Shown here in pieces: positions 1 through 12,329 of a stretch of 12,329 nt of DNA. The translations under genes and the position numbers were made by a program. This stretch comes from a virus (taxonomy: Duplodnaviria > Heunggongvirae > Uroviricota > Caudoviricetes), in the IMG/VR virus record IMGVR_UViG_2737471824_000002; one strand, written 5' to 3'. The notes beneath the pieces were generated by a model. It was not told the DNA's origin, searched no databases, and was given only the letters and a program-made list of their open reading frames with translations. Within the stretch, counting starts at the first letter, position 1, and the number at the start of each line of letters is the position of its first letter.

Positions 1-333
1 TGGCTGTTTTACGCGTATGACAGGCTCCGGAAGACGGTTGTTGCGCACGTATTCGGTGAACGCACTATGGCGACGCTGGGGCGTCTTATGAGCCTGCTGT
101 CACCCTTTGACGTGGTGATATGGATGACGGATGGCTGGCCGCTGTATGAATCCCGCCTGAAGGGAAAGCTGCACGTAATCAGCAAGCGATATACGCAGCG
201 AATTGAGCGGCATAACCTGAATCTGAGGCAGCACCTGGCACGGCTGGGACGGAAGTCGCTGTCGTTTTCAAAATCGGTGGAGCTGCATGACAAAGTCATC
301 GGGCATTATCTGAACATAAAACACTATCAATAA
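1..333 (+). CDS. insB: IS1 transposase InsB, C-terminal part (5' end outside window)
   Basis: Open frame from nt 1 to TAA at 331-333; translation matches the InsB C-terminus. Confidence 0.85.
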
Positions 334-348
334 GTTGGAGTCATTACC
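1..348 (+). mobile_element. IS1 insertion sequence, right-hand portion (window begins inside the element)
   Basis: Frame-1 translation from nt 1 matches the C-terminal part of IS1 InsB (…[35 protein letters not shown]…[11 protein letters not shown]), and the sequence ends with the IS1 terminal inverted repeat …ATCAATAAGTTGGAGTCATTACC at 326-348. Recognised from memory of IS1. Confidence 0.9.
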
Positions 349-544
349 TGGCAGCTGAAGGGCCACGCAGACCATTTATCCGGCAAAATTCCACGCGTAA
401 TCCGGTGGTAATTTCTTCTGCATCGCGGAGATTGAGCGCTGAAACATGAAGCTGGACATCGATACGACCATCGGATGGGGTGATAAGACCCTTGCCGCTT
501 TTGCCGTCAAAGGTTTTGACAATTCCTGTCATTTTACGGGACAA
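344..544 (-). CDS. cspF: CspF/CspH-like cold-shock-domain protein, 3' end altered by the IS1 insertion
   Basis: 66-aa [30 protein letters not shown]…[12 protein letters not shown], a CspF/CspH-type paralogue divergent from cspB. The final Arg codon straddles the IS1 end at 347-349 and the stop codon (344-346) lies inside the IS1 inverted repeat, so the native last ~5 codons are replaced. Confidence 0.75.
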
Positions 545-648
545 AAAAATTCCTTAATACTGATAACTTGGCGCACTATACACACGTTCCTGAAGAAAGC
601 TATAGTTTTTTGATGGGGTTGAAGATGGCTGGATGTCTAAAATAAACA

Positions 649-677
649 TTGCTTCATATGTTCAACTATGCGTTAAT
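649..677 (+). promoter_or_regulatory. Putative cspB promoter (cspA-like: -35 TTGCTT, 17-bp spacer, -10 GTTAAT)
   Basis: TTGCTT at 649-654 and GTTAAT at 672-677 with a 17-bp spacer, resembling the cspA promoter (TTGCAT/CTTAAT); this leaves a ~160-nt 5' UTR before the cspB ATG, typical of the cspA family. Confidence 0.45.
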
Positions 678-685
678 GATTGCGT

Positions 686-702
686 CGGTTTGAAGAACAG
701 AC
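686..702 (+). promoter_or_regulatory. Cold-box-like element at the start of the cspB 5' UTR
   Basis: CGGTTTGAAGAACAGAC resembles the cspA cold box (…GGUUUGACGUACAGAC); a GCCGAAAGGC box also occurs at 816-825 just before the SD (TAAGGAA, 832-838). Confidence 0.45.
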
Positions 703-844
703 GATATACGAAGTAGTTTACTAAAGCAGTTCTCATTTCAGGTGTTATTCACTTATTCCTTCTTTGAGTCTCTCCAATTAAGTACGAAGTCGTTTCTGTT
801 ATGCAAACCATTTATGCCGAAAGGCTCAAGTTAAGGAATGTAGA

Positions 845-1060
845 ATGTCAAATAAAATGACTGGTTTAGTAAAATGGTTTAACGCTGATAAAGGTTTCGG
901 CTTTATTTCTCCTGTTGATGGTAGTAAAGATGTGTTTGTGCATTTTTCTGCGATTCAGAATGATAATTATCGAACCTTATTTGAAGGTCAAAAGGTTACC
1001 TTCTCTATAGAGAGTGGTGCTAAAGGTCCTGCAGCAGCAAATGTCATCATTACTGATTAA
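845..1060 (+). CDS. cspB: Cold shock protein CspB
   Basis: 71-aa [74 protein letters not shown] with RNP1/RNP2 cold-shock-domain motifs; matches CspB as I recall it. Confidence 0.95.
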
Positions 1061-1171
1061 AATTCATCGCTCGTCTGTATACGATAACGAAGAAGGCTGA
1101 TGCCTGAGTAGAGATACGGACAGAGTAGTGAATATTGGATCTCTTTAATAAAAAGTAAGGAGGTCCAATAC

Positions 1172-1207
1172 ATGAAACAATGGCTAGCATATTTGGCAAA
1201 ATCTTAA
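1172..1207 (+). CDS. Candidate 11-codon mini-ORF (MKQWLAYLAKS) with a strong Shine-Dalgarno; function unknown
   Basis: TAAGGAGGT at 1156-1164, 7-nt spacer, ATG at 1172, stop TAA at 1205-1207; followed by hairpins (TGCAG…CTGCA 1241-1255; CAGCAG…CTGCTG 1269-1287) and the terminator at 1342-1366. Confidence 0.2.
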   Translation: MKQWLAYLAKS

Positions 1208-1341
1208 TCAGGAAAAGTATGCTAACCATTGTGGTGAAGTGCAGGTTTGCTGCATGAATAGTTTTACAGCAGAAGCTAACTGCTGGCATGGCAAAACAAA
1301 GTGCGTAAGTGGATGACTCCCACAAAAAGCACCACAATCTC

Positions 1342-1366
1342 AAACCCGCTCAGGCGGGTTTTTTAT
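1342..1366 (+). terminator. Rho-independent terminator (mainly plus-strand; weak on the minus strand)
   Basis: Stem AAACCCGC (1342-1349), loop TCAG, stem GCGGGTTT, followed by a T-run (TTTTTTATTAT). On the minus strand the hairpin is preceded by an A-tract and followed by only UUUGAG. Confidence 0.7.
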
Positions 1367-1423
1367 TATCTGCTTTAAATATATTATTAAAATATAAAAA
1401 ATACTTGTTACTAATAAAATCAA

Positions 1424-1594
1424 TCAGGCTACAGCTTTAAGATTTGTCTGGAATACTTTGTTGCAATGAGGGCAGATCAAAAGGGCACCTTTTTGTACTC
1501 TTGAAAAACTGTGTTCTGACTCTTGGGTGCAGTTTGGGCAGGAACATTTAACGAGATAATTACGGCGTGATTTTGAGTTTTTACGTTCTGACAT
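1424..1594 (-). CDS. Small zinc-ribbon protein (CxCxxC…CxxC), function unknown
   Basis: ORF 1424-1645; the internal start at 1594 (MSERKNSKSRRNYLVKCSCPNCTQESEHSFSRVQKGALLICPHCNKVFQTNLKAVA, 56 aa) is preceded by AGGAA, while the upstream ATG at 1645 has no SD. Two Cys pairs ~20 residues apart suggest a zinc ribbon. Convergent with cspB. Confidence 0.45.
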   Translation of the reverse strand: MSERKNSKSRRNYLVKCSCPNCTQESEHSFSRVQKGALLICPHCNKVFQTNLKAVA

Positions 1595-1813
1595 AGGCTT
1601 TTCCTGTATAAATGGCCGTATACAGTACACTAAATATGAAAACATTTCTCGTATTATTATTTTATATATGACTTTCTTTCAAAATAATTACCCACATTTT
1701 TAATGTGTATGTTTTTTTAGCGCCGTTGAGAACAACGTGTGCTGTCAAAACTACCCCGTAGACTCCGATCTTTTCAAACATATTGCACCATCCGTGTACA
1801 TCGGGGTGAGGAT

Positions 1814-2029
1814 ATGAAATCAATGGATAAGTTAACAACAGGTGTTGCCTATGGCACATCGGCGGGTAATGCTGGTTTCTGGGCATTGCAGTTACTCGAT
1901 AAAGTAACTCCGTCACAGTGGGCTGCAATCGGTGTGCTGGGTAGCCTGGTTTTTGGCCTGCTGACGTATCTGACAAATCTTTATTTCAAGATTAAAGAAG
2001 ACAGGCGTAAGGCTGCGAGAGGAGAGTAA
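1814..2029 (+). CDS. essQ: Class II holin / pinholin (phage 21 S-like), dual-start motif MKSM
   Basis: [71 protein letters not shown]; two TMDs and a charged C-terminus; the Met1/Met4 dual start is typical of the holin/antiholin pair of S21. It lies immediately upstream of ydfR and the SAR endolysin. Confidence 0.9.
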
Positions 2030-2033
2030 TCCA

Positions 2034-2341
2034 ATGACTCAAGACTATGAACTGGTTGTGAAAGGAGTCCGTAATTTTGAGAATAAAGTTACGGTAACTG
2101 TAGCCTTACAGGACAAAGAACGCTTTGACGGTGAAATTTTTGACCTGGATGTCGCCATGGACCGTGTTGAAGGAGCTGCGCTGGAGTTTTATGAGGCAGC
2201 AGCCAGAAGGAGCGTCCGGCAAGTCTTCCTGGAAGTAGCAGAAAAATTGTCAGAAAAAGTTGAGTCTTATCTGCAGCATCAGTACTCCTTTAAGATTGAA
2301 AATCCTGCCAATAAGCACGAGCGTCCTCATCATAAATATCT

Positions 2342-2345
<4 letters not shown>
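2034..2345 (+). CDS. ydfR: YdfR-like protein (DUF1327 family as I recall it), lysis-cassette associated, function unknown
   Basis: 103-aa ORF between holin and endolysin, same order as essQ-ydfR-rrrQ in K-12 Qin; its stop overlaps the endolysin start (ATGA at 2342-2345). Confidence 0.75.
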
Positions 2346-3369
<1,024 letters not shown>

Positions 3370-3551
3370 GGTAATATTAAATCGGAACATTTACATCGCG
3401 GAATGTAAAATTTAAATAAAAAGGACTCTTCCATGAGCCAAAATTCCTGAAATCTTAAGGGTAAGATAAAAGGTCTTAATCAGAATGACACGTTTTATTA
3501 ATAAATAAAGCTATTCTTTCATTGCTGTGTTTTTCTTTACAAAAGTAATCC

Positions 3552-3580
3552 TTGCTATGGGTGGTTAATCATGCGTTAAT
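3552..3580 (+). promoter_or_regulatory. Putative cspI promoter (-35 TTGCTA, 17-bp spacer, -10 GTTAAT)
   Basis: Same architecture and shared ATGCGTTAATG core as the putative cspB promoter; gives a ~145-nt 5' UTR. Confidence 0.4.
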
Positions 3581-3731
3581 GGTGTTCTGGTTTGTTACAA
3601 ATTTATCTGAAGCAGTCATTGTTATAATTTTATTATTTGTACCTCTTGAGATTTCCTTGTTGGTTTTTCTCTCTGATATTTTTTTTCGGACCATTCTGCC
3701 CAAGGGCTAATTTCTTCAAAAGGTAATAATT

Positions 3732-3944
3732 ATGTCTAACAAAATGACTGGTTTAGTGAAATGGTTTAACCCTGAAAAAGGTTTTGGTTTCATCACGCCG
3801 AAAGATGGCAGCAAAGATGTGTTTGTCCATTTCTCAGCAATTCAGAGCAACGATTTCAAAACATTAACTGAGAATCAGGAAGTTGAATTTGGTATTGAGA
3901 ACGGACCTAAAGGTCCTGCCGCTGTTCATGTAGTGGCGCTTTGA
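3732..3944 (+). CDS. cspI: Cold shock protein CspI
   Basis: 70 aa [70 protein letters not shown]; matches CspI as I recall it. Confidence 0.95.
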
Positions 3945-3954
3945 GGTAGACAAT

Positions 3955-4143
3955 ATTACAAACCATATTCACTTTAGATGCCCGTGTTGTCATGGTTCCC
4001 AGTATAGAACATCATCTTTTGATGTTTCTGACATGAATCCTTTCGGGGCAAAATGTATCTTTTGTAAATCAATGATGATTACATTTGATAATATTTCACA
4101 ATACTTAAATGCCAGCCGTCTGTCGTTGGATTTAAAAAAGTGA
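3955..4143 (+). CDS. Small zinc-ribbon protein (CxCC…CxxC) with no canonical start codon; possible ATT initiation or a start-codon-mutated pseudogene
   Basis: Open frame from the stop at 3931-3933 to TGA 4141-4143, encoding …(I)TNHIHFRCPCCHGSQYRTSSFDVSDMNPFGAKCIFCKSMMITFDNISQYLNASRLSLDLKK. SD GAGGT at 3943-3947 with a 7-nt spacer to ATT at 3955. The first in-frame ATG (4033) lies after the first Cys cluster. A strong terminator follows at 4149-4171. Absent from the ORF track for lack of a canonical start. Confidence 0.45.
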   Translation: MTNHIHFRCPCCHGSQYRTSSFDVSDMNPFGAKCIFCKSMMITFDNISQYLNASRLSLDLKK

Positions 4144-4148
4144 AAATG

Positions 4149-4171
4149 AAGGCTCCTTCGGGAGCTTTTTT
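4149..4171 (+). terminator. Rho-independent terminator with UUCG tetraloop
   Basis: AAGGCTCC-TTCG-GGAGCTT followed by TTTTTTG, immediately downstream of the zinc-ribbon ORF. Confidence 0.7.
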
Positions 4172-4215
4172 GCTTGGTGTCTATTCGATGGATACTCACA
4201 TACTACGGTAACATC

Positions 4216-4446
4216 ATGAAAAAAATCATAGTTTTTTTTAACTCTGAACCAGCAGTGGTAGTGCCAGCGATGACTGGAGTTAACACCATCATGCGTGAAT
4301 ATCCAAATGGCGAAAAAACACACCTTACTGTAATGGCCGCAGGGTTTCCATCTCTGACCGGAGATCATAAAGTCATTTATGTAGCCGCGGATCGACATGT
4401 TACTTCAGAAGAAATTCTGGAAGCAGCAATAAGGCTCTTGAGTTGA
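4216..4446 (+). CDS. Small protein of the cold-shock moron cluster (possibly YnfN/YmcE-like), function unknown
   Basis: ORF 4174-4446; internal start MKKIIVFFNSEPAVVVPAMTGVNTIMREYPNGEKTHLTVMAAGFPSLTGDHKVIYVAADRHVTSEEILEAAIRLLS (76 aa). It sits between cspI and gnsB, where K-12 Qin has ynfN; start site uncertain (ATGs at 4174, 4216, 4270, 4294). Confidence 0.45.
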   Translation: MKKIIVFFNSEPAVVVPAMTGVNTIMREYPNGEKTHLTVMAAGFPSLTGDHKVIYVAADRHVTSEEILEAAIRLLS

Positions 4447-4617
4447 TTTGATGCTATTGCATTGATAATTCAGGAAAATTCTCTTTGTCTGTTTGTGTAA
4501 AATTTAGACTATCGTATGTTGATTATTGCGATGTTTCATCTTATCTTTTACACGTTTGCACCATATAATCGACTTACTGTGTAACTGGAAAGTCATAACA
4601 GACTAAAAGAGGAAATG

Positions 4618-4791
4618 ATGAATATTGAAAACTTAAAAACAAAAGCAGAAGCAGATATTTCTGAATATATAACAAAAAAAATTATTGAACTTAAGAAAAA
4701 GACCGGGAAAGAAGTTACCAGTATTCAGTTTACCGCACGGGAAAAAATGACGGGTCTTGAAAGCTATGATGTCAAGATTAATTTAATCTGA
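4618..4791 (+). CDS. gnsB: GnsB-like small protein (Gns family)
   Basis: 57 aa MNIENLKTKAEADISEYITKKIIELKKKTGKEVTSIQFTAREKMTGLESYDVKINLI (an extra ATG lies at 4615); SD GAGGAAA upstream; TATAAT -10 at 4564-4569. Matches GnsA/GnsB as I recall them. Absent from the ORF track because it is under 60 aa. Confidence 0.8.
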   Translation: MNIENLKTKAEADISEYITKKIIELKKKTGKEVTSIQFTAREKMTGLESYDVKINLI

Positions 4792-4818
4792 TGTATTCAA
4801 TAATAAAATTTATCCATA

Positions 4819-4845
4819 AACCTCGTTTTTACGGGGTTTTGTTAT
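4819..4845 (+). terminator. Possible terminator downstream of gnsB
   Basis: AACCTCG-TTTTTA-CGGGGTT followed by a T-rich stretch; the stem includes a G-U wobble pair. Confidence 0.35.
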
Positions 4846-4942
4846 ATTTGAATGGTTCCGAATATCTAAATCACAATTGTTGATGGTTTTTATTAAACCA
4901 ATGCAGTCCGGCTCAGGAGTGAGAGAAGCCGGACGTTATGGT

Positions 4943-5353
4943 TTAGCGTGGTAAGATCTGTGTAGTTTTCTGGATGCTTTCAGTAAATAGTAATGAATTA
5001 TCAAAGGTATAGTAATATCTTTTTTGTTCGTGGATATTTGTAACCCACCGAAAAACTCCTGCTTTAGCAAGGTTTCTTCTGTATTCCTGAAATGTGATCT
5101 CTCTGGATTTCAGCTTATTAGAGGTCGTTTCTATAAGATGCCTATCCTTTGAAAATTTGACAGACACAATGTTTTTTAGGCCCTTTAATAACACTGTATT
5201 ATCATTTTTTAATACAATATGAACATTCTCTGTGGCTAAATAGTAAATGTAATGTGAGACATTGTGACGTTTTAGCTCAGAATAAAACCATTGATAGTTT
5301 AAATCGTTTCGAACTTTATCAAATATTTGTTTAAAAATGACTACCTGATCCAT
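4943..5353 (-). CDS. ydfO: YdfO-like protein (DUF1398 family as I recall it), function unknown
   Basis: ORF 4943-5368; the second ATG (5353; [11 protein letters not shown]…, 136 aa) is preceded by GGAAGG at 7-nt spacing, the first ATG has no SD. Same position relative to gnsB as ydfO in K-12 Qin. Confidence 0.75.
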
Positions 5354-5410
5354 AGATAAACCTTCCATGTGATATGAGGGGGCGTAGTCTGCACGATTAT
5401 CTAAATTGCT

Positions 5411-5644
5411 TCAATCTGGTCTGACCTGTTTTCTGAGCAATTCAGTAATGTCACTCTTTTCTTTGTTTGCTTCAGAAGAAACTCTTTTTTCTGAGCACAG
5501 TCTCCGGCGGCAGGCTTCAATGACCCAGGCTGAGAAATTCCCGGACCCTTTTTGCTCAAGAGCGATGTTAATTTGTTCAATCATTTGGTTAGGAAAGCGG
5601 ATGTTGCGGGTTGTTGTTCTGCGGGTTCTGTTCTTCGTTGACAT
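5411..5644 (-). CDS. ynfO: YnfO-like small protein with a ribbon-helix-helix-like N-terminal pattern (DUF3950 family as I recall it)
   Basis: 77 aa MSTKNRTRRTTTRNIRFPNQMIEQINIALEQKGSGNFSAWVIEACRRRL…; basic N-terminus, then a beta-strand/helix/helix pattern reminiscent of Arc/CopG RHH folds. Lies 57 bp upstream of ydfO on the same strand. Confidence 0.6.
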   Translation of the reverse strand: MSTKNRTRRTTTRNIRFPNQMIEQINIALEQKGSGNFSAWVIEACRRRLCSEKRVSSEANKEKSDITELLRKQVRPD

Positions 5645-5843
5645 GAGGTTGCCCCGTATTCAGTGTCGCTGATTTGTATTGTCTGAAGTTGTTTTTACGT
5701 TAAGTTGATGCAGATCAATTAATATGATACCTGCGTCATAATTGATTATTTGACGTGGTTTGATGGCGTAGATGCACGTTGTGACATGCAGATGATAATT
5801 ATTATCATTTTGCGGGTCCTTTCCGGCGATCCGACAGGTTACG

Positions 5844-5855
5844 GGGCGGCGACCT
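5844..5855 (+). other. Lambda-type cosN (12-nt cohesive end GGGCGGCGACCT) within a cos region (cosQ upstream, cosB downstream to the Nu1 start)
   Basis: …ATCCGACAGGTTACG|GGGCGGCGACCTCGCGGGTTTTCGCTATTTATGAAAATTTTCCGGTTTAAGGC… is near-identical to the joined right and left ends of phage lambda as I recall them; it sits ~180 bp upstream of the Nu1-like gene. Confidence 0.85.
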
Positions 5856-6032
5856 CGCGGGTTTTCGCTATTTATGAAAATTTTCCGGTTTAAGGCATTT
5901 CCGTTCTTCTTCGTCGTAACTTAATGTTTTTATTTAAAATACCCCCTGAAAAGAAAGGAAACGACAGGTGCTGAAAACGAGCTTTTGGGCCTCTGTCGTT
6001 TCCTTTCTCTGTTTTTGGCCGTGGAATGAACA

Positions 6033-6578
6033 ATGGAAGTCAACAAAAAGCAGCTGGCTGACATTTTCGGTGCGAGTATCCGTACCATTCAGAACTGGCA
6101 GGAACAGGGAATGCCCGTTCTGCGAGGCGGTGGCAAGGGTAATGAGGTGCTTTATGACTCTGCCGCCGTTATAAGATGGTATGCCGAAAGGGATGCTGAA
6201 ATTGAGAACGAAAAGCTGCGCCGGGAAGTTGAAGAACTGCGGCAGGCCAGCGAGACAGATCTCCAGCCAGGGACTATTGAGTACGAACGCCATCGACTTA
6301 CGCGTGCGCAGGCCGACGCACAGGAGCTGAAAAATGCCAGAGACTCCGCTGAAGTGGTGGAAACCGCATTCTGTACTTTCGTGCTGTCGCGGATCGCAGG
6401 TGAAATTGCCAGTATTCTCGACGGGATCCCCCTGTCGGTGCAGCGGCGTTTTCCGGAACTGGAAAACCGACATGTTGATTTCCTGAAACGGGATATCATC
6501 AAAGCCATGAACAAAGCAGCCGCGCTGGATGAACTGATACCGGGGTTGCTGAGTGAATATATCGAACAGTCAGGTTAA
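6033..6578 (+). CDS. nohA: Terminase small subunit (lambda Nu1-like)
   Basis: 181 aa MEVNKKQLADIFGASIRTIQNWQEQGMPVLRGGGKGNEVLYDSAAVIRWYAERDAEIENEKLRREVEEL…, near-identical to lambda gpNu1 with its N-terminal winged-HTH; overlaps the start of the A-gene fragment as in lambda. Confidence 0.9.
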   Translation: MEVNKKQLADIFGASIRTIQNWQEQGMPVLRGGGKGNEVLYDSAAVIRWYAERDAEIENEKLRREVEELRQASETDLQPGTIEYERHRLTRAQADAQELKNARDSAEVVETAFCTFVLSRIAGEIASILDGIPLSVQRRFPELENRHVDFLKRDIIKAMNKAAALDELIPGLLSEYIEQSG

Positions 6579-6798
6579 CAGGCTGCGGCATTTTGTCCGC
6601 GCCGGGCTTCGCTCACTGTTCAGGCCGGAGCCACAGACCGCCGTTGAATGGGCGGATGCTAATTACTATCTCCCGAAAGAATCCGCATACCAGGAAGGGC
6701 GCTGGGAAACACTGCCCTTTCAGCGGGCCATCATGAATGCGATGGGCAGCGACTACATCCGTGAGGTGAATGTGGTGAAGTCTGCCCGTGTCGGTTAA
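6553..6798 (+). pseudogene. Terminase large subunit (lambda gpA-like), N-terminal 81-codon stump ending at a deletion junction
   Basis: [81 protein letters not shown] matches the first ~81 residues of lambda gpA; the frame then hits TAA (6796-6798) where tail-fibre sequence begins. The ATPase and nuclease domains are absent. Confidence 0.85.
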
Positions 6799-8446
6799 CA
6801 GCACTTCCGAGTCACTGGCGGCAACACCAAAAGCCGTTAAGGCCGCGTATGACCTGGCTAACGGGAAATACACCGCACAGGATGCAACGACAGCACAGAA
6901 AGGGATAATCCAGCTAAGCAGCGCGACCAACAGCACGTCTGAAACGCTTGCCGCGACACCAAAGGCAGTAAAAGCAGCCAATGACAATGCTGAGAAACGT
7001 CTGCAGAAAGATCAGAACGGTGCGGATATCCCTGGCAAAGATACCTTTACGAAAAATATTGGTGCCTGCCGTGCCTTCGGTGGGTCAGTAAGCACAACAA
7101 CAGGAAACTGGACGACTGCACAGTTTATCGAGTGGCTGGATTCTCAGGGAGCATTTAACCATCCATACTGGATGTGCAAGGGTTCCTGGTCTTATGGCAA
7201 TAATAAAATCATTACTGATACTGACTGCGGTAATATTCATCTCGCCGGAGCTGTCATTGAAGTAATGGGGATAAAGTCAGCGATGACGATCCGCATTACC
7301 ACACCGACCACCTCCACTGGTGGTGGAACAACTAACGCCCAGTTTACCTATATTAATCACGGAACAGATTATTCACCTGGCTGGCGAAGGGACTATAACT
7401 CCAGAAATAAGCCAACGGCATCAGAGATCGGGGCGTTACCGTCAGGTGGAACAGCAGTATCATCAGTTAATCTGGCTTCAAAAGGTCGGGTAACCGCGCT
7501 GACAGACAATACGCAGGGGGCAGCAGGTCTTGAGTTATACGAGGTGTATAACAACGGATATCCAACAGCGTATGGAAATATCATTCACCTGAAAGGGATG
7601 ACAGCCGTTGGCGAAGGTGAGTTACTCATCGGCTGGAGTGGTACAAGCGGTGCTCATGCTCCGGCATTTATTCGTTCACGACGGGATACGACCGACGCAA
7701 ACTGGTCGCCGTGGGCGCAGCTTTACACCTCGGCTCATCCTCCTGCAGAGTTTTATCCAGTCGGTGCACCAATCCCGTGGCCATCAGATACCGTTCCGTC
7801 TGGTTATGCCCTGATGCAGGGGCAGACTTTTGACAAATCTGCATACCCGAAACTTGCAGTTGCTTATCCGTCAGGCGTGATCCCTGATATGCGTGGCTGG
7901 ACGATTAAGGGCAAGCCCGCCAGTGGTCGGGCCGTATTATCTCAGGAACAGGACGGCATTAAATCGCACACCCACAGCGCCAGCGCATCCAGTACGGATT
8001 TGGGGACGAAAACCACATCGTCGTTTGATTACGGAACCAAATCCACGAATAACACCGGGGCGCATACCCATAGTATTAGCGGGACCGCAAATAGTGCCGG
8101 TGCGCACCAACACAAGAGTTCCGGTGCATTTGGTGGCACGAACACGAGCATTTTCCCTAATGGTTATACCGCGATTTCAAATCTAAGCGCGGGGATTATG
8201 AGCACAACAAGCGGTAGTGGCCAGACTCGTAATGCAGGGAAGACATCATCAGATGGTGCTCATACCCACTCGCTGTCCGGCACTGCTGCAAGCGCAGGCG
8301 CACATGCACATACTGTCGGTATTGGTGCTCATACGCACTCCGTTGCGATTGGTTCACATGGACACACCATCACCGTTAACGCTGCTGGTAACGCGGAAAA
8401 CACCGTCAAAAACATCGCATTTAACTATATTGTGAGGCTTGCATAA
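6788..8446 (+). pseudogene. stfQ: Side tail fibre protein (lambda Stf-like), N-terminally truncated; only a GTG pseudo-start
   Basis: The C-terminal ~230 aa match the lambda Stf C-terminus ([13 protein letters not shown]…[11 protein letters not shown]…[30 protein letters not shown]…[31 protein letters not shown]); the STSE(S/T)[11 protein letters not shown] motif occurs twice near the 5' end; the central part is unlike lambda. The N-terminal virion-attachment region is missing. Confidence 0.85.
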
Positions 8447-9021
8447 TGGCATTCAGAATGAGTGAACAACCACGGACCATAAAAATTTATAATCTGCTGG
8501 CCGGAACTAATGAATTTATTGGTGAAGGTGATGCATATATTCCGCCTCATACAGGTCTGCCAGCAAACAGTACCGATATTGCACCGCCAGATATTCCGGC
8601 TGGCTTCGTGGCTGTTTTCAACAGTGATGAGTCATCGTGGCATCTCGTTGAAGATCATCGGGGTAAAACGGTTTATGACGTGGCTTCCGGCGACGCGTTA
8701 TTTATTTCTGAACTCGGTCCGTTACCGGAAAATGTTACCTGGTTATCGCCGGAAGGGGAGTTTCAGAAGTGGAACGGCACAGCCTGGGTGAAGGATACGG
8801 AAGCAGAAAAACTGTTCCGGATCCGGGAGGCGGAAGAAACAAAAAACAACCTGATGCAGGTAGCCAGTGAGCATATTGCGCCGCTTCAGGATGCTGCAGA
8901 TCTGGAAATTGCAACGGAGGAAGAAATCTCGTTGCTGGAAGCATGGAAAAAGTATCGGGTATTGCTGAACCGTGTTGATACGTCAACTGCACAGGATATT
9001 GAATGGCCAGCACTGCCGTAG
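8446..9021 (+). CDS. tfaQ: Tail fibre assembly protein (Tfa)
   Basis: 191 aa [54 protein letters not shown]…; start overlaps the stf stop (TAATG at 8444-8448); Tfa-family chaperone adjacent to stf, as in lambda. Confidence 0.85.
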
Positions 9022-9097: not shown

Positions 9098-9120
9098 ATC
9101 TCACACCGAGATTATTTTTT
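9098..9120 (+). terminator. Weak candidate terminator between the convergent tfa and pin genes
   Basis: ATCTC-ACACC-GAGAT hairpin (5-bp stem) followed by TATTTTTT; the T-run overlaps the pin stop codon on the opposite strand. Confidence 0.3.
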
Positions 9121-9709
9121 ATATGTCAGGTGTCTGAAGTTTTGCTTTGGCTCTTAAAATGGTTTGCCGCGAGGTTTTGAATTCCCGGGCAATGGCACTT
9201 ATACTTACACCTGACTTAATTCGTTCGAATACCGCCTGTTTCTGTTCTTCATTTAACACAGGTGGTCGACCAAAACGTTTCCCTGCGCCGCGGGCTCTTA
9301 CTATCCCGGAATGAGTGCGTTCAAGTAAAAGGTCTCGTTCAAATTCAGCGACTGCTGAAATTACTTGCATCATCATTTTTCCTGTTGGACTGGTCAGGTC
9401 AATGCCCCCCAATGCTAAGCAATGCACTCTGATACCTGTTTCGGTCAGTTGTTCCACTGTTTTCCTGATATCCATTGCATTACAACCAAGGCGATCCAGT
9501 TTTGTCACAATCAATTGATCACCACATTTCAGGCGAGCAAGCAACCGGTTAAAACCAGGACGCTCACTGGTTGCTGCTGAGCCGCTAATGTGTTCTTCGA
9601 TTATTTGCTGAGGTTTGATTTTAAAACCTGCACTTTCGATTTCCCGGCGTTGATTTTCGGTGGTCTGATCCAGCGTTGATATCCGACAGTAAGCAAAAAT
9701 TTGAGACAT
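9119..9709 (-). CDS. pinQ: Pin-family serine DNA invertase (Gin/Hin/Cin/Pin resolvase-invertase family)
   Basis: 196 aa [75 protein letters not shown]… with the catalytic Ser in the YxRxST motif near the N-terminus and a C-terminal HTH ([18 protein letters not shown]). Confidence 0.9.
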
Positions 9710-10025: not shown

Positions 10026-10259
10026 TTACATTTTACCATTTAAATTTTGGTTGTCTTTAAGAACTGATATCGCTGTTTGTAATAATTCTTTGTTATCCAG
10101 CCATGATTTTTTCTTTATGTTTCCTTCAATGTAATCAAGCAATGTTCTGGTATTGATAGGTCTTCCCTGTTTTGCTACTTCCACTACAGCATCCCCTAGG
10201 ATAATTCTTACTTCAGGAAGCTGCGCAGGGAACCACTTTAGGGTGTCTTTTGATTTCAT
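10026..10259 (-). CDS. ydfK: YdfK/YnaE-like small protein (annotated as cold-shock protein in K-12 prophages, as I recall)
   Basis: ORF 10026-10292; the internal start at 10259 (MKSKDTLKWFPAQLPEVRIILGDAVVEVAKQGRPINTRTLLDYIEGNIKKKSWLDNKELLQTAISVLKDNQNLNGKM, 77 aa) is preceded by AAGGAA; a TATAAT -10 on the minus strand (10298-10303) would place the transcription start after the longer ORF's ATG. Confidence 0.75.
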   Translation of the reverse strand: MKSKDTLKWFPAQLPEVRIILGDAVVEVAKQGRPINTRTLLDYIEGNIKKKSWLDNKELLQTAISVLKDNQNLNGKM

Positions 10260-11045
10260 GAAGATATTCCTTAAAATATTATTGATTTTCATTGCGATAT
10301 TATATGTCTGATTCAGGATATGTTGACTTATACATCGGTTTTGTCTGGGTTATTGGATATGCCAATCCCTAATTTTATTAGGGCATGACTAAAAATGCTG
10401 AATATGATAAGGAGAGATGTGATTATCAGTATGCTGTTCATATAGCCTCGAATTAGTAATGTGTTATATATGATATAGTTGACAATTTTTATCTTGGGTG
10501 TTCTTAAAGTTCGTAGATAAACATTGTCGTTTCAGGTATACAGGAATGCTAACAGGTGGCAGCAAAAATCAGGCGGTTTATGGCGCAAGCTGAAGCGGCA
10601 ACTGCAAACTATCTTATGCAGAGACTCTACACGGATTGGGTTTAAAAGTATACATAGATAACAGTTTTTATCTGAAAAAGAAAAATATCAAGGTGATATA
10701 GCCTATATGCCTTTGATGCGGAGGAATGAATGTGATGGGAGTGATGTATCTGAATAGTTGAAAAACCGCAGACACGCCTTATGCAAGAACGTGCTGCGAT
10801 TGGCTGGTAAATTTTTCGATAGTGTGAGTATTGAATGATTTCCAGCCGTTCTTGATTTTACGCATAAATCCATGAAAAAACTACTTATCTGTTGGGGAGT
10901 TTTTTTGGGGCATATATGGGACAGAAATAGGCCCCAGATAGACACTGAGATCGAACTTAGGATGCTTTTTAAAAAAATGCAACTATCTGAAAAAACCTAG
11001 AAAACGCCAAGGAAACCACAGGATGGGAAAAAACACCTGTGAATT

Positions 11046-12329
11046 ATGGATTTCCAGTTATATTCGCTCGGCGCAGCGTTAGTGTTTCATGAAATATTTT
11101 TTCCTGAATCATCAACGGCAATGGCGTTAATTCTGGCAATGGGAACCTACGGTGCAGGTTATGTGGCGCGTATTGTCGGAGCATTTATTTTCGGCAAAAT
11201 GGGCGACAGAATAGGGCGTAAAAAAGTGCTCTTTATTACCATCACCATGATGGGGATCTGTACCACCTTAATTGGTGTGTTACCGACCTATGCACAGATT
11301 GGTGTTTTTGCACCCATCTTGCTGGTGACGTTGCGTATTATTCAGGGGTTGGGTGCAGGTGCGGAAATTTCCGGTGCCGGTACGATGCTGGCGGAATATG
11401 CGCCAAAAGGTAAGCGCGGAATTATCTCCTCATTTGTGGCTATGGGAACTAACTGCGGAACCTTGAGCGCAACGGCAATCTGGGCCTTTATGTTCTTCAT
11501 TCTCAGTAAAGAGGAACTGCTGGCGTGGGGATGGCGTATACCGTTCCTGGCGAGTGTTGTCGTGATGGTCTTTGCTATCTGGTTGCGTATGAATCTGAAA
11601 GAAAGCCCGGTCTTTGAGAAGGTTAACGACAGTAACCAACCGACAGCAAAACCTGCACCTGCTGGTAGCATGTTCCAGAGCAAATCCTTCTGGCTGGCAA
11701 CAGGGCTGCGTTTTGGTCAGGCGGGTAACTCCGGGTTAATTCAGACTTTCCTTGCAGGCTATTTAGTGCAGACGTTATTGTTTAACAAAGCAATTCCAAC
11801 AGATGCATTGATGATCAGTTCGATTCTCGGCTTTATGACCATTCCGTTCCTTGGTTGGTTATCCGATAAAATTGGTCGCCGGATCCCGTATATTATTATG
11901 AATACCTCCGCGATTGTGCTGGCATGGCCAATGCTTTCTATCATTGTAGATAAAAGCTATGCCCCGAGCACCATTATGGTTGCACTGATTGTGATTCATA
12001 ACTGTGCGGTGCTGGGATTATTTGCTCTGGAAAACATTACCATGGCAGAAATGTTCGGCTGTAAAAACCGCTTTACCCGGATGGCTATTTCTAAAGAAAT
12101 TGGTGGTCTTATCGCTTCCGGTTTTGGTCCTATCCTGGCGGGTATTTTCTGCACCATGACGGAATCCTGGTATCCGATCGCCATTATGATCATGGCATAT
12201 TCAGTGATTGGTTTAATCTCTGCGCTGAAAATGCCAGAGGTGAAAGACCGTGATTTAAGTGCGCTGGAAGACGCTGCGGAAGATCAACCGCGTGTTGTAA
12301 GAGCTGCGCAACCTTCCAGAAGTCTGTAA
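11046..12329 (+). pseudogene. ydfJ: MFS transporter (metabolite:H+ symporter family, YdfJ-like), N-terminally truncated at the prophage junction
   Basis: 427 aa ending at TAA at the window end; contains the MFS loop motif G-x3-D-R-x-G-R-K-K (GKMGDRIGRKKV) and multiple TMDs; it begins within the first TMD (MDFQLYSLGAALVFHEIFFP…) with an in-frame stop (TGA 11040-11042) directly upstream. K-12 ydfJ is interrupted by Qin. Confidence 0.75.

Follow-up and report, generated by a model that had tools for sequence, protein, structure and literature searches.

The window, as we call the whole stretch of DNA analysed here (12,329 nt), is very probably the right arm of a cryptic lambdoid prophage of the Qin type that integrated into ydfJ in an E. 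coli strain, and in which a deletion has brought the start of the large terminase gene A against the middle of the side tail fibre gene stf. It corresponds to positions 2–12330 of public contig JUCS01000004.1 of assembly GCA_000798255.1, a 16.8-kb draft contig with one end in IS1, whose identical sequence is recorded in two samples. The gene order cspF-cspB-essQ-ydfR-rrrQ-rzpQ-cspI-...-ydfO-ynfO-cos-nohA-stf′-tfaQ-pinQ-ydfK is collinear with the Qin of K-12, MLI105 and W5-6 at 99–100% identity. The 5′-truncated ydfJ marks the Qin insertion site, the source contig running on into ydfI-type genes, and both gene order and ydfJ junction agree with annotated Qin in K-12, MLI105, W5-6 and O15_8X (Table 1). 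No data contradict this identification, and at least 80% of the window is covered at one place in 586 of 5,426 complete E. coli genomes. At the left end IS1 takes the place of the last cspF codons; the prophage further left (early genes, Q) lies outside the contig. An earlier note on this DNA had described the scar without recognising the Qin prophage as its locus; the scar itself is known biology, the ordinary decay of a named cryptic prophage.

Table 1. Features of the window, with the evidence for each
Feature	Position	Strand	Basis
IS1, 3′ part	1–348	+	ORF 67–333 InsB-like; Pfam DDE_Tnp_IS1 match on same contig stretch; Qin homology begins at 349
Qin late-region cargo and lysis genes (cspF′, cspB, ynfU, essQ, ydfR, rrrQ, rzpQ, cspI, ynfQ/R/N, gnsB, ydfO, ynfO)	349–5800		Gene-for-gene with MLI105, W5-6 and K-12 Qin
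cosQ-type heptamer GGGTCCT	5814–5820	+	Unchanged relative to lambda 48473–48479
cosN, 12-nt cohesive-end sequence GGGCGGCGACCT	5844–5855	+	Identical to lambda left end; cos-site annotation in phage DE3 matches
cosB-type terminase binding region (R3, IHF region, R2, R1)	5890–6010	+	Aligned to lambda 47–167
nohA, full-length small terminase subunit (Nu1 homologue), 181 aa	6033–6578	+	Pfam PF07471 and lambda Nu1 alignment
gpA stump, large terminase codons 1–81 and TAA stop	6553–6798	+	Identical to lambda gpA 1–81
Deletion joint, TA dinucleotide common to both parents	6796–6797	+	Alignment to both parents
stf′, C-terminal 549 residues (476–1024) of side tail fibre	6797–8446	+	100% identical to MLI105 stf 10346–11996
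tfaQ, tail-fibre assembly protein, intact	8446–9021	+	Pfam Caudo_TAP, E = 3.6e-43; tfaQ in annotated relatives
pinQ, serine DNA invertase homologue	9119–9709	-	Pfam Resolvase and HTH_7; pinQ in annotated relatives
Prophage right end (att core) at start of truncated ydfJ	11046–11057		PhiR42_1 homology stops at 11057; K-12 Qin feature overlaps ydfJ 5′ end by 9 nt
ydfJ′, host MFS transporter gene, prophage-interrupted	11046–12329	+	Relatives annotate ydfJ, incomplete, N-terminus missing

Alignment to both parents places the joint precisely. The match to the A parent extends up to and including 6797 and that to the stf parent holds from 6796 on, leaving a 2-bp TA overlap as microhomology; the abrupt switch from A to stf had been described correctly in the earlier note, with the boundary at 6797/6798 instead of the actual 6796/6797. 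The left parent reads ...GTCGGTTA/TTCC at this point and the right parent ...GCGACTA/ACAGC, and the TAA stop of the stump (6796–6798) is made by the joint itself. Upstream, the 81 codons previously assigned to large terminase are indeed identical to lambda gpA residues 1–81, making the stump a truncated large terminase. The stump gives a sub-threshold GpA_ATPase match only (profile positions 3–39 of 247), and what is left is not a large terminase: the ATPase and nuclease domains (about 641 aa) are absent. Downstream, the stf frame (+1 relative to the A frame) picks up with residue 476 of the 1,024-aa Stf, such that the 552-aa open reading frame at 6788–8446 consists of three spurious codons followed by 549 Stf residues. 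For stf′ itself there is neither a start codon nor a ribosome-binding site, and the source assembly called no gene there. Pfam finds Phage_fiber_2 repeats and a Collar domain in stf′ and no N-terminal tail-attachment domain, which full-length Stf relatives possess.

Comparison with the intact phage PhiR42_1 gives the deletion a size of 20,207 bp and a content of A(82–end), W, B, C/Nu3, D, E, FI, FII, Z, U, V, G, T, H, M, L, K, I, J, lom and stf(1–475), which bears out the proposed loss of A beyond the stump and of all head and tail genes up to stf. The window holds no large terminase, head or tail genes and, as far as it extends, could form no particles, as also proposed. Its joint is absent from the 5,426 complete E. 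coli genomes. Flanking stf′/tfaQ we found no convincing inverted repeat pair as crossover sites for a Pin/Gin/Hin-type switch, and no second tfa, though pinQ is present; an invertible segment around tfaQ-pinQ was rejected, none being found.

The packaging origin beside the scar has the arrangement of a lambda-type cos, with cosN and its flanking symmetry, the heptamer upstream that we take to be cosQ (as we take the lambda coordinates of the cos elements from the lambda literature) and cosB R3, R2 and R1 downstream. The cosN called in the earlier note is present at the same place, within a segment unchanged from lambda 48487 to 53. Six differences from lambda 47–167 fall in cosB, one of them (lambda 54 G>A) within R3, where PhiR42_1 has the same base; the R2/R1 inverted pair (5952–5977 and 5983–6008) is unchanged. 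The adjoining gene, also read as full-length and Nu1-like before, encodes a small terminase subunit that matches Phage_Nu1 over positions 1–164 of 164 (E = 2.4e-101), N-terminal HTH included, and is identical to lambda Nu1 at 178 of 181 residues (K48R, A75T, L132I). With 100% identity to the complete genome deposited for PhiR42_1, the cos/Nu1 segment looks intact, and on that identity the window cos would be expected to support cleavage by terminase and packaging.

We propose that the morphogenesis region of an ancestor equivalent to intact PhiR42_1 was removed by an illegitimate deletion mediated by microhomology, the surviving joint in this strain linking gpA nt 245 (...GTCGGTTA) to stf codon 476 via the common TA. 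The net loss of 20.2 kb may have occurred in one step or several. One possible intermediate is an MLI105-like Qin (A nearly whole and fused to a lom remnant, stf full), for which a further 3,398-bp deletion would suffice; another is an A81/C-Nu3 joint, which has the 9-mer TAACAGCAC in common with the stf partner. Joints differ between strains on a near-identical Qin backbone: MLI105 joins A to lom′, W5-6 carries an in-frame A347::Stf of 601 aa, K-12 joins the Nu1 3′ end to stf at window position 7491, and O15_8X joins A at about 312 to Z′, with V′::stf. Because different A/Nu1-to-stf alleles sit on the same backbone, decay here has been repeated and lineage-specific.

The left breakpoint recurs. 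In other remnants, many of them unrelated, gpA nt 245/246 (lambda nt 955/956; ...GGTTA(T)/, ...GTCGGTTA(T)/) has been fused to no fewer than 17 different right-hand partners, which lie in C/Nu3, E (two sites), H, L (two sites), J, lom and its upstream region, stf (at least four sites), the tfa start codon and unidentified DNA. The joints were seen in prophages at more than one chromosomal position and on at least two allelic backgrounds, GTCGG and GTTGG, with microhomology of 2 to 7 bp. Two samples were drawn irrespective of breakpoint, and 4 of the 18 distinct joints in them use this position; gpA nt 308 (...CCCTTAT/) is a second hot site, though a weaker one. The census relied on anchor-based scans, which took the place of a protein word-index search and of spread sampling of complete genomes; the intact A that most genomes carry as well made both of these biased or uninformative. 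IS5 and IS1 elements of related records are located elsewhere than at the breakpoint. A literature search found no paper on a gpA breakpoint hotspot, and one on nohA/Qin cos returned mostly noise.

We give slightly less than an even chance to the idea that gpA 245/246 is a genuine hotspot of site-specific deletion in lambda-family prophages. As a hotspot it would involve a nick, a break or a stalled 3′ end that recurs at the TA step and is joined through 2–7 bp of microhomology to many downstream TA sites; candidate drivers are a secondary terminase nick (the left flank of cosN likewise reads GGTTA), a topoisomerase site or a precisely excising mobile element. Several other origins were considered and set aside. 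Against an IS-mediated origin of the fixed breakpoint, neither an IS end nor a transposase adjoins the site at any of some 300 loci or among the set of truncated proteins. Hairpin-driven slippage was rejected on an imperfect hairpin that ends 4 nt upstream with unremarkable energy (z = -1.9 and -1.5; short windows unstructured). Nor is this a natural mosaic boundary: no deposited phage record has lambda homology stopping at nt 955, and genes of the phage 21 type diverge before about nt 789. A Y82 nonsense founder (TAT>TAA) was likewise rejected: the search gave no GGTTAATCC... allele in which A continues. Pin recombination at pseudo-sites is contradicted by several joint-carrying remnants without pin and by the varying microhomology length (2 to 7 bp), and the sequence does not fit half-sites of the hix/gix type.

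Retention of cos and Nu1 next to the scar led the earlier note to suggest packaging in trans, and a helper-dependent element, its cos and Nu1 kept for packaging and transfer by a co-resident lambdoid phage in the manner of cos satellites, is the best placed of the alternatives to simple decay, though an unlikely one. The cos and nohA are those of the deposited PhiR42_1 genome, and release of defective O157 prophages as packaged DNA, by way of inter-prophage help, is on record (PMC2669165). The geometry of the window argues otherwise, as its one cos would send packaging past stf′, tfaQ and pinQ into ydfJ and host DNA, not into the prophage. Lambda packaging begins at cos and proceeds toward Nu1 and A, and its termination needs a second, correctly spaced cos at about 0.75–1.05 genome lengths. 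The window also has no int, xis or replication genes, IS1 truncates its left side, and the cos-Nu1 unit is not consistently preserved, the K-12 deletion entering nohA.

A domesticated function is less likely still. It would have gpA(1–81) and/or NohA kept to disturb terminase assembly of incoming lambda-type phages, or the C-terminal Stf fragment and TfaQ expressed for host benefit. The exact 81-aa stump does recur in many remnants with differing downstream partners, and it contains the Nu1-binding N-terminus; work from the Feiss laboratory reportedly assigned Nu1 binding to about the first 48 residues of gpA. Selection on protein, however, would not confine the breakpoint to a single nucleotide, and about half of the joints at the site give fusions to E, H, L, lom or J instead of the 81-aa product. 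The stump form is absent from the K-12 and W5-6 alleles, stf′ lacks the start signals for translation noted above, and no promoter- or terminator-like signal exceeds shuffled expectation around the joint. A rearrangement or assembly artefact (a chimeric contig, or the missing genes elsewhere in the genome) is highly improbable: the source is a draft contig ending in IS1 and further draft contigs (L016–L019) break exactly at the joint position, yet two samples carry the same contig sequence, the finished chromosomes CP010228.1, AP027971.1 and NZ_CM151356.1 have joints at the same left position, and both flanks are collinear with Qin as far as the ydfJ att end.

Read as the product of ordinary deletion, the remnant is inert for particle formation and preserves cos and nohA. 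Its role is most likely that of a passive reservoir: an infecting or co-resident lambda-type phage could cut or recombine at the window cos, and homologous recombination could give such a phage access to nohA, lysis, stf-C/tfa or cargo genes. What is documented for remnants of this kind is that infecting lambdoid phages rescue their genes by recombination (PMC3945230). Lambda acquires nu1 and lysis genes from the DLP12 remnant by homologous recombination, with cos stimulating exchange, and lambda recombines with Qin stf/tfa at about 2e-6 (PMC3945230).

As described, the scar is textbook prophage decay and changes nothing. Its practical value is small: a Qin allele with intact NohA and cos, unlike that of K-12, and in PhiR42_1 a deposited complete phage genome that is the intact counterpart of Qin. 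Only the recurrent breakpoint could matter more widely. If the hotspot is true, a defined enzyme or structure drives the first step of lambdoid prophage decay; if many independent decay events begin at one base of the terminase gene, prophage inactivation is partly directed and mechanistically defined, not random erosion.

Among known systems, cos-type phage satellites (PICIs) resemble the window in having a helper-compatible cos with no encoded capsid. PICIs carry their own integrase, a replication module, a helper-sensing repressor and a size suited to packaging. The window differs in having none of those modules, PICI-type integrase, replication and helper-response genes being absent from both the 12.3-kb window and the 16.8-kb contig, which starts at IS1, and in a single cos that points out of the element into host DNA. 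The left end of lambda itself is close (cosN and gpA 1–81 identical; 98.4% identity over lambda 1–955), whereas the central part of stf is not lambda-like, aligning to lambda stf only in patches of 82–93% identity, and lambda has neither the pin gene nor the cold-shock gene cargo of the window. PhiR42_1 (PV340562.1), a complete Qin-like lambdoid phage genome, is 100% identical to window 349–6797 over 6,449 bp (PhiR42_1 18004–24452), its stf is 99.5% identical to window 6796–8082 and the order stf-tfa-pin-ydfK-att is the same; it differs by possessing the full 20.2 kb from A to stf together with int, xis and early genes, none of which is in the window. K-12 Qin (Kim; nohA-stfQ-tfaQ-pinQ) shares the ydfJ site, the cspF-to-ydfK gene order and 98.9–99.8% DNA identity in common parts. 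Its joint departs from the nohA 3′ end (window 6561), giving an altered 189-aa NohA, no gpA stump and 320 Stf residues, against an intact NohA, 81 gpA codons and 549 Stf residues here. The K-12 remnant DLP12 (nohD-aaaD′-tfaD′) repeats the same design, with a cos, an intact Nu1 homologue and a short gpA stump that meets a gene of the tail-fibre module at a microhomology. In DLP12 the stump ends at gpA nt 308 (...CCCTTAT/), the partner is tfa, not stf, and both integration site and cargo differ; DLP12 cos and nu1 proved functional once recombined into lambda (PMC3945230).

By ORF listing and similarity searches, the whole 12.3-kb window falls within the right arm of an E. coli cryptic lambdoid prophage of the Qin type. 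From left to right it carries an IS1 fragment (1–348), cspF′, cspB, ynfU, essQ, ydfR, rrrQ, rzpQ, cspI, ynfQ/R/N, gnsB, ydfO, ynfO, cos, nohA, a gpA stump, an stf fragment, tfaQ, pinQ (minus strand), ydfK, ynfT and then host ydfJ, truncated at its 5′ end. The window equals positions 2–12330 of draft contig JUCS01000004.1 (assembly GCA_000798255.1), which starts within IS1, so that neither Q (ydfT) nor any of this Qin copy's early region is in the sequence seen. IS1 adjoins cspF and replaces its final few codons, leaving a 66-residue ORF (70 in CspF) that ends ...PSAAR. Four cold-shock-domain genes (cspF′, cspB, cspI and ydfK) are cargo on this one arm, with 73% aligned DNA identity between cspB and cspI. 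At least 80% of the window is covered at one place in 586 of 5,426 complete E. coli genomes, none of these 586 being collinear across the gpA–stf scar region; the exact joint occurs in 0 of the 5,426.

Features of the window, right-hand partners of the gpA nt 245/246 breakpoint, and scars of other Qin copies (L, DNA loci compared; P, truncated-protein set)
Feature	Position or source	Remark
cspF′	344–544	cold-shock-domain cargo
cspB, then cspI	845–1060, 3732–3944	cold-shock-domain cargo
GGGTCCT heptamer	5814–5820	unchanged vs lambda; we take it to be cosQ
cosN GGGCGGCGACCT	5844–5855	
R2/R1 inverted pair of cosB	5952–5977 and 5983–6008	unchanged vs lambda
nohA	6033–6578	full-length Nu1; Pfam Phage_Nu1 end to end, E 2.4e-101
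gpA stump	6553–6798	ORF identical to lambda gpA residues 1–81
ydfK	near 10026–10260	cold-shock-domain cargo
Partner: stf codon 476	this window	
Partner: stf near codon 705	E. coli S3	
Partner: stf, window ~7531	L042	
Partner: unaligned joint	L023	directly 5′ of 313-aa stf C-terminal ORF
Partner: tfa start codon	L010	
Partner: C/Nu3	AP027971.1	
Partner: E	P0006, P0009	two sites
Partner: H	P0011	
Partner: L	L026, L252	two sites
Partner: J	NZ_CM151356.1	
Partner: lom	P0073	
Partner: upstream of lom	L011	
Partner: DNA without identification	L013, L144, L219	
Scar	MLI105	A, nearly whole, fused to lom remnant, then full-length stf
Scar	W5-6 and many others	A codon ~347 fused in frame to Stf C-terminus (601 aa)
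Scar	O15_8X	A~312 joined to Z′, then U and V′::stf fusion
Scar	K-12	nohA 3′ end (window 6561) joined to stf at window 7491, also via TA

Alignment to lambda shows no difference from lambda 48487 to 53, a stretch spanning cosN; R3 of cosB has a single change (lambda 54 G>A) and the nohA product three substitutions relative to lambda Nu1. The scar is real, and an earlier note made from the sequence alone described it accurately: its cosN and full-length Nu1-like gene are where it placed them, its 81 codons of large terminase are a truncated terminase, and its intact-looking cos has the same sequence as that of a deposited phage genome, PhiR42_1, and would on that comparison be intact. Mapped base by base against the MLI105 Qin copy, which keeps both parents (A and stf), A identity ends at 6797 and stf identity begins at 6796, giving a 2-bp TA overlap common to both parents as the junction microhomology. 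The abrupt entry into mid-stf therefore stands, but the switch is at 6796/6797 and not, as first placed, at 6797/6798. The joint makes a TAA stop (6796–6798) in place of Tyr82, and the stf frame, +1 relative to that of A, restarts at 6797 (residue 476 of 1024), so that the 552-aa ORF comprises 3 spurious codons and 549 Stf residues. This ORF has no start signal of its own and is not called as a gene in the source assembly; the fragment retains Phage_fiber_2 repeats and the Collar domain and lacks the N-terminal domain present in full-length relatives. Near the joint, no promoter-like or terminator-like match rises above what shuffled sequence gives.

Escherichia phage PhiR42_1 (PV340562.1, 48.7 kb, annotated as a complete genome, host ECOR13) carries the whole Qin gene order: int/xis lie at one end, and the lambda-type region of A to J, lom, stf, tfa and pin is complete; the phage appears to belong to the PhiR phage panel plated in PMC13190303, a paper without that name. 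Window 349–6797, cos included, matches it at 100% identity over 6,449 bp, and window 6796–8082 matches its stf at 99.5%. Between the two matches lie 20,207 bp of PhiR42_1 holding A from codon 82, W, B, C/Nu3, D, E, FI, FII, Z, U, V, G, T, H, M, L, K, I, J, lom and stf codons 1–475, so the proposed net loss of the rest of A and of the head and tail genes up to stf was right. PhiR42_1 and Qin have cargo in common (cspF/B/I, gnsB, relBE, hokD, dicA/C-like immunity, pin). Given this and the identity over 6.4 kb, PhiR42_1 is essentially an intact Qin, a counterpart of the 'cryptic' prophage among deposited phage genomes. Window 10029–10809 aligns to both ends of the PhiR42_1 record, which thus appears to have a ~780-bp terminal duplication there.

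The only lead worth following is the recurrence of the gpA breakpoint. The exact 81-aa stump is encoded in many other contexts, the DNA differing after the same ...GTCGGTTA, and DNA and protein evidence together show that a left breakpoint at gpA nt 245/246 (window 6790–6798) has no fewer than 17 distinct partners on the right. Joints at this site also occur in unrelated remnants (loci L010–L014, L023, L026, L042, L144, L219, L252 and L299), the A gene being of either of two alleles (GTCGG or GTTGG) and the prophages differing in chromosomal site; TA directly precedes the joint in every identified right parent, with microhomology of 2–7 bp. To remove ascertainment bias, metagenome and viral contig collections were scanned for an anchor, gpA nt 181–204, that lies 40 nt upstream of the site, and the end of A homology was mapped at each locus. 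The 240 loci gave 18 distinct natural joints, four at nt 245/246, two at nt 308 and the others scattered; two more from the metagenome set were dropped as Illumina-adaptor and cloning-vector artefacts. With the site specified beforehand, the chance of 4/18 in a 2–3-nt window of 1,722 nt is ~5e-9 to 3e-8 (~1e-4 for each of two samples alone), where counts are distinct joints and not phylogenetically resolved events, some maybe being serial derivatives of earlier joints. The second, weaker breakpoint at nt 308 (...CCCTTAT), 63 nt deeper in A and also ending TTAT, has at least three or four different partners (L022 7663, L166, P0004, P0008), the first being the K-12 DLP12 scar (aaaD′/tfaD). Matches to the lambda A anchor in assemblies of unrelated taxa (Marinifilum, Tardiphaga, Shewanella, Paenibacillus, Bradyrhizobium and others; genome contigs L269–L298) lie mostly on tiny low-coverage contigs, and A nt 474 joined to T7-promoter vector sequence is common to three such assemblies and one metagenome contig; these were rejected as lambda or cloning-vector contamination.

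With the left end fixed at a TA step, right ends that vary and short microhomology, the pattern fits joints made from a nick, a break or a stalled 3′ end that recurs there. Of the other causes tested, none is supported: the site does not fit invertase crossover sequences, its DNA hairpin is not unusual, deposited phage genomes have no mosaic boundary there, no nonsense founder allele was found, and no IS is present at the site. A literature search found no paper describing this recurrent breakpoint.

Scars differ between strains while the Qin backbone stays almost identical, and the present one is a strain-specific allele of an already known cryptic prophage. The gpA 1–~347::Stf fusion (W5-6, 6705–8510 in that locus), found in W5-6 and at least 17 other complete genomes, is the commonest Qin allele among the top matches; its product bears the annotation 'terminase large subunit family protein'. 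An MLI105-like copy can, judged from its flanks (both 100% identical), yield the window allele by a single 3,398-bp deletion, and an intact phage can equally do so in one 20.2-kb step. In the AP027971.1 remnant the gpA hot site is joined to C/Nu3 at a site reading TAACAGCAC, a 9-mer with which the stf partner here also begins (6796–6806), so the window's joint could also have arisen from an earlier A81/C joint by secondary deletion between 9-bp repeats.

Structure, breakpoint, loss of every morphogenesis gene and retention of cos and NohA are established for this locus, and we infer that it is inert for particle formation. The helper-dependent mobility proposed in the earlier note is not supported. 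Lambda packaging runs from cos towards Nu1 and A and is completed at a second cos about one genome length away; here there is one cos, that direction leaves the prophage by way of stf′, tfaQ and pinQ and enters ydfJ and host genes, and no excision or replication genes were found in the source contig. Inter-prophage help can package defective O157 prophages (PMC2669165); trans-packaging of the Qin remnant is unlikely. The documented interaction of such remnants is homologous recombination with an infecting phage, by which the locus may be read as a passive gene reservoir: lambda takes up DLP12 nu1 and lysis genes in this way, with cos stimulating exchange, and recombines with Qin stf/tfa at ~2e-6 (PMC3945230).
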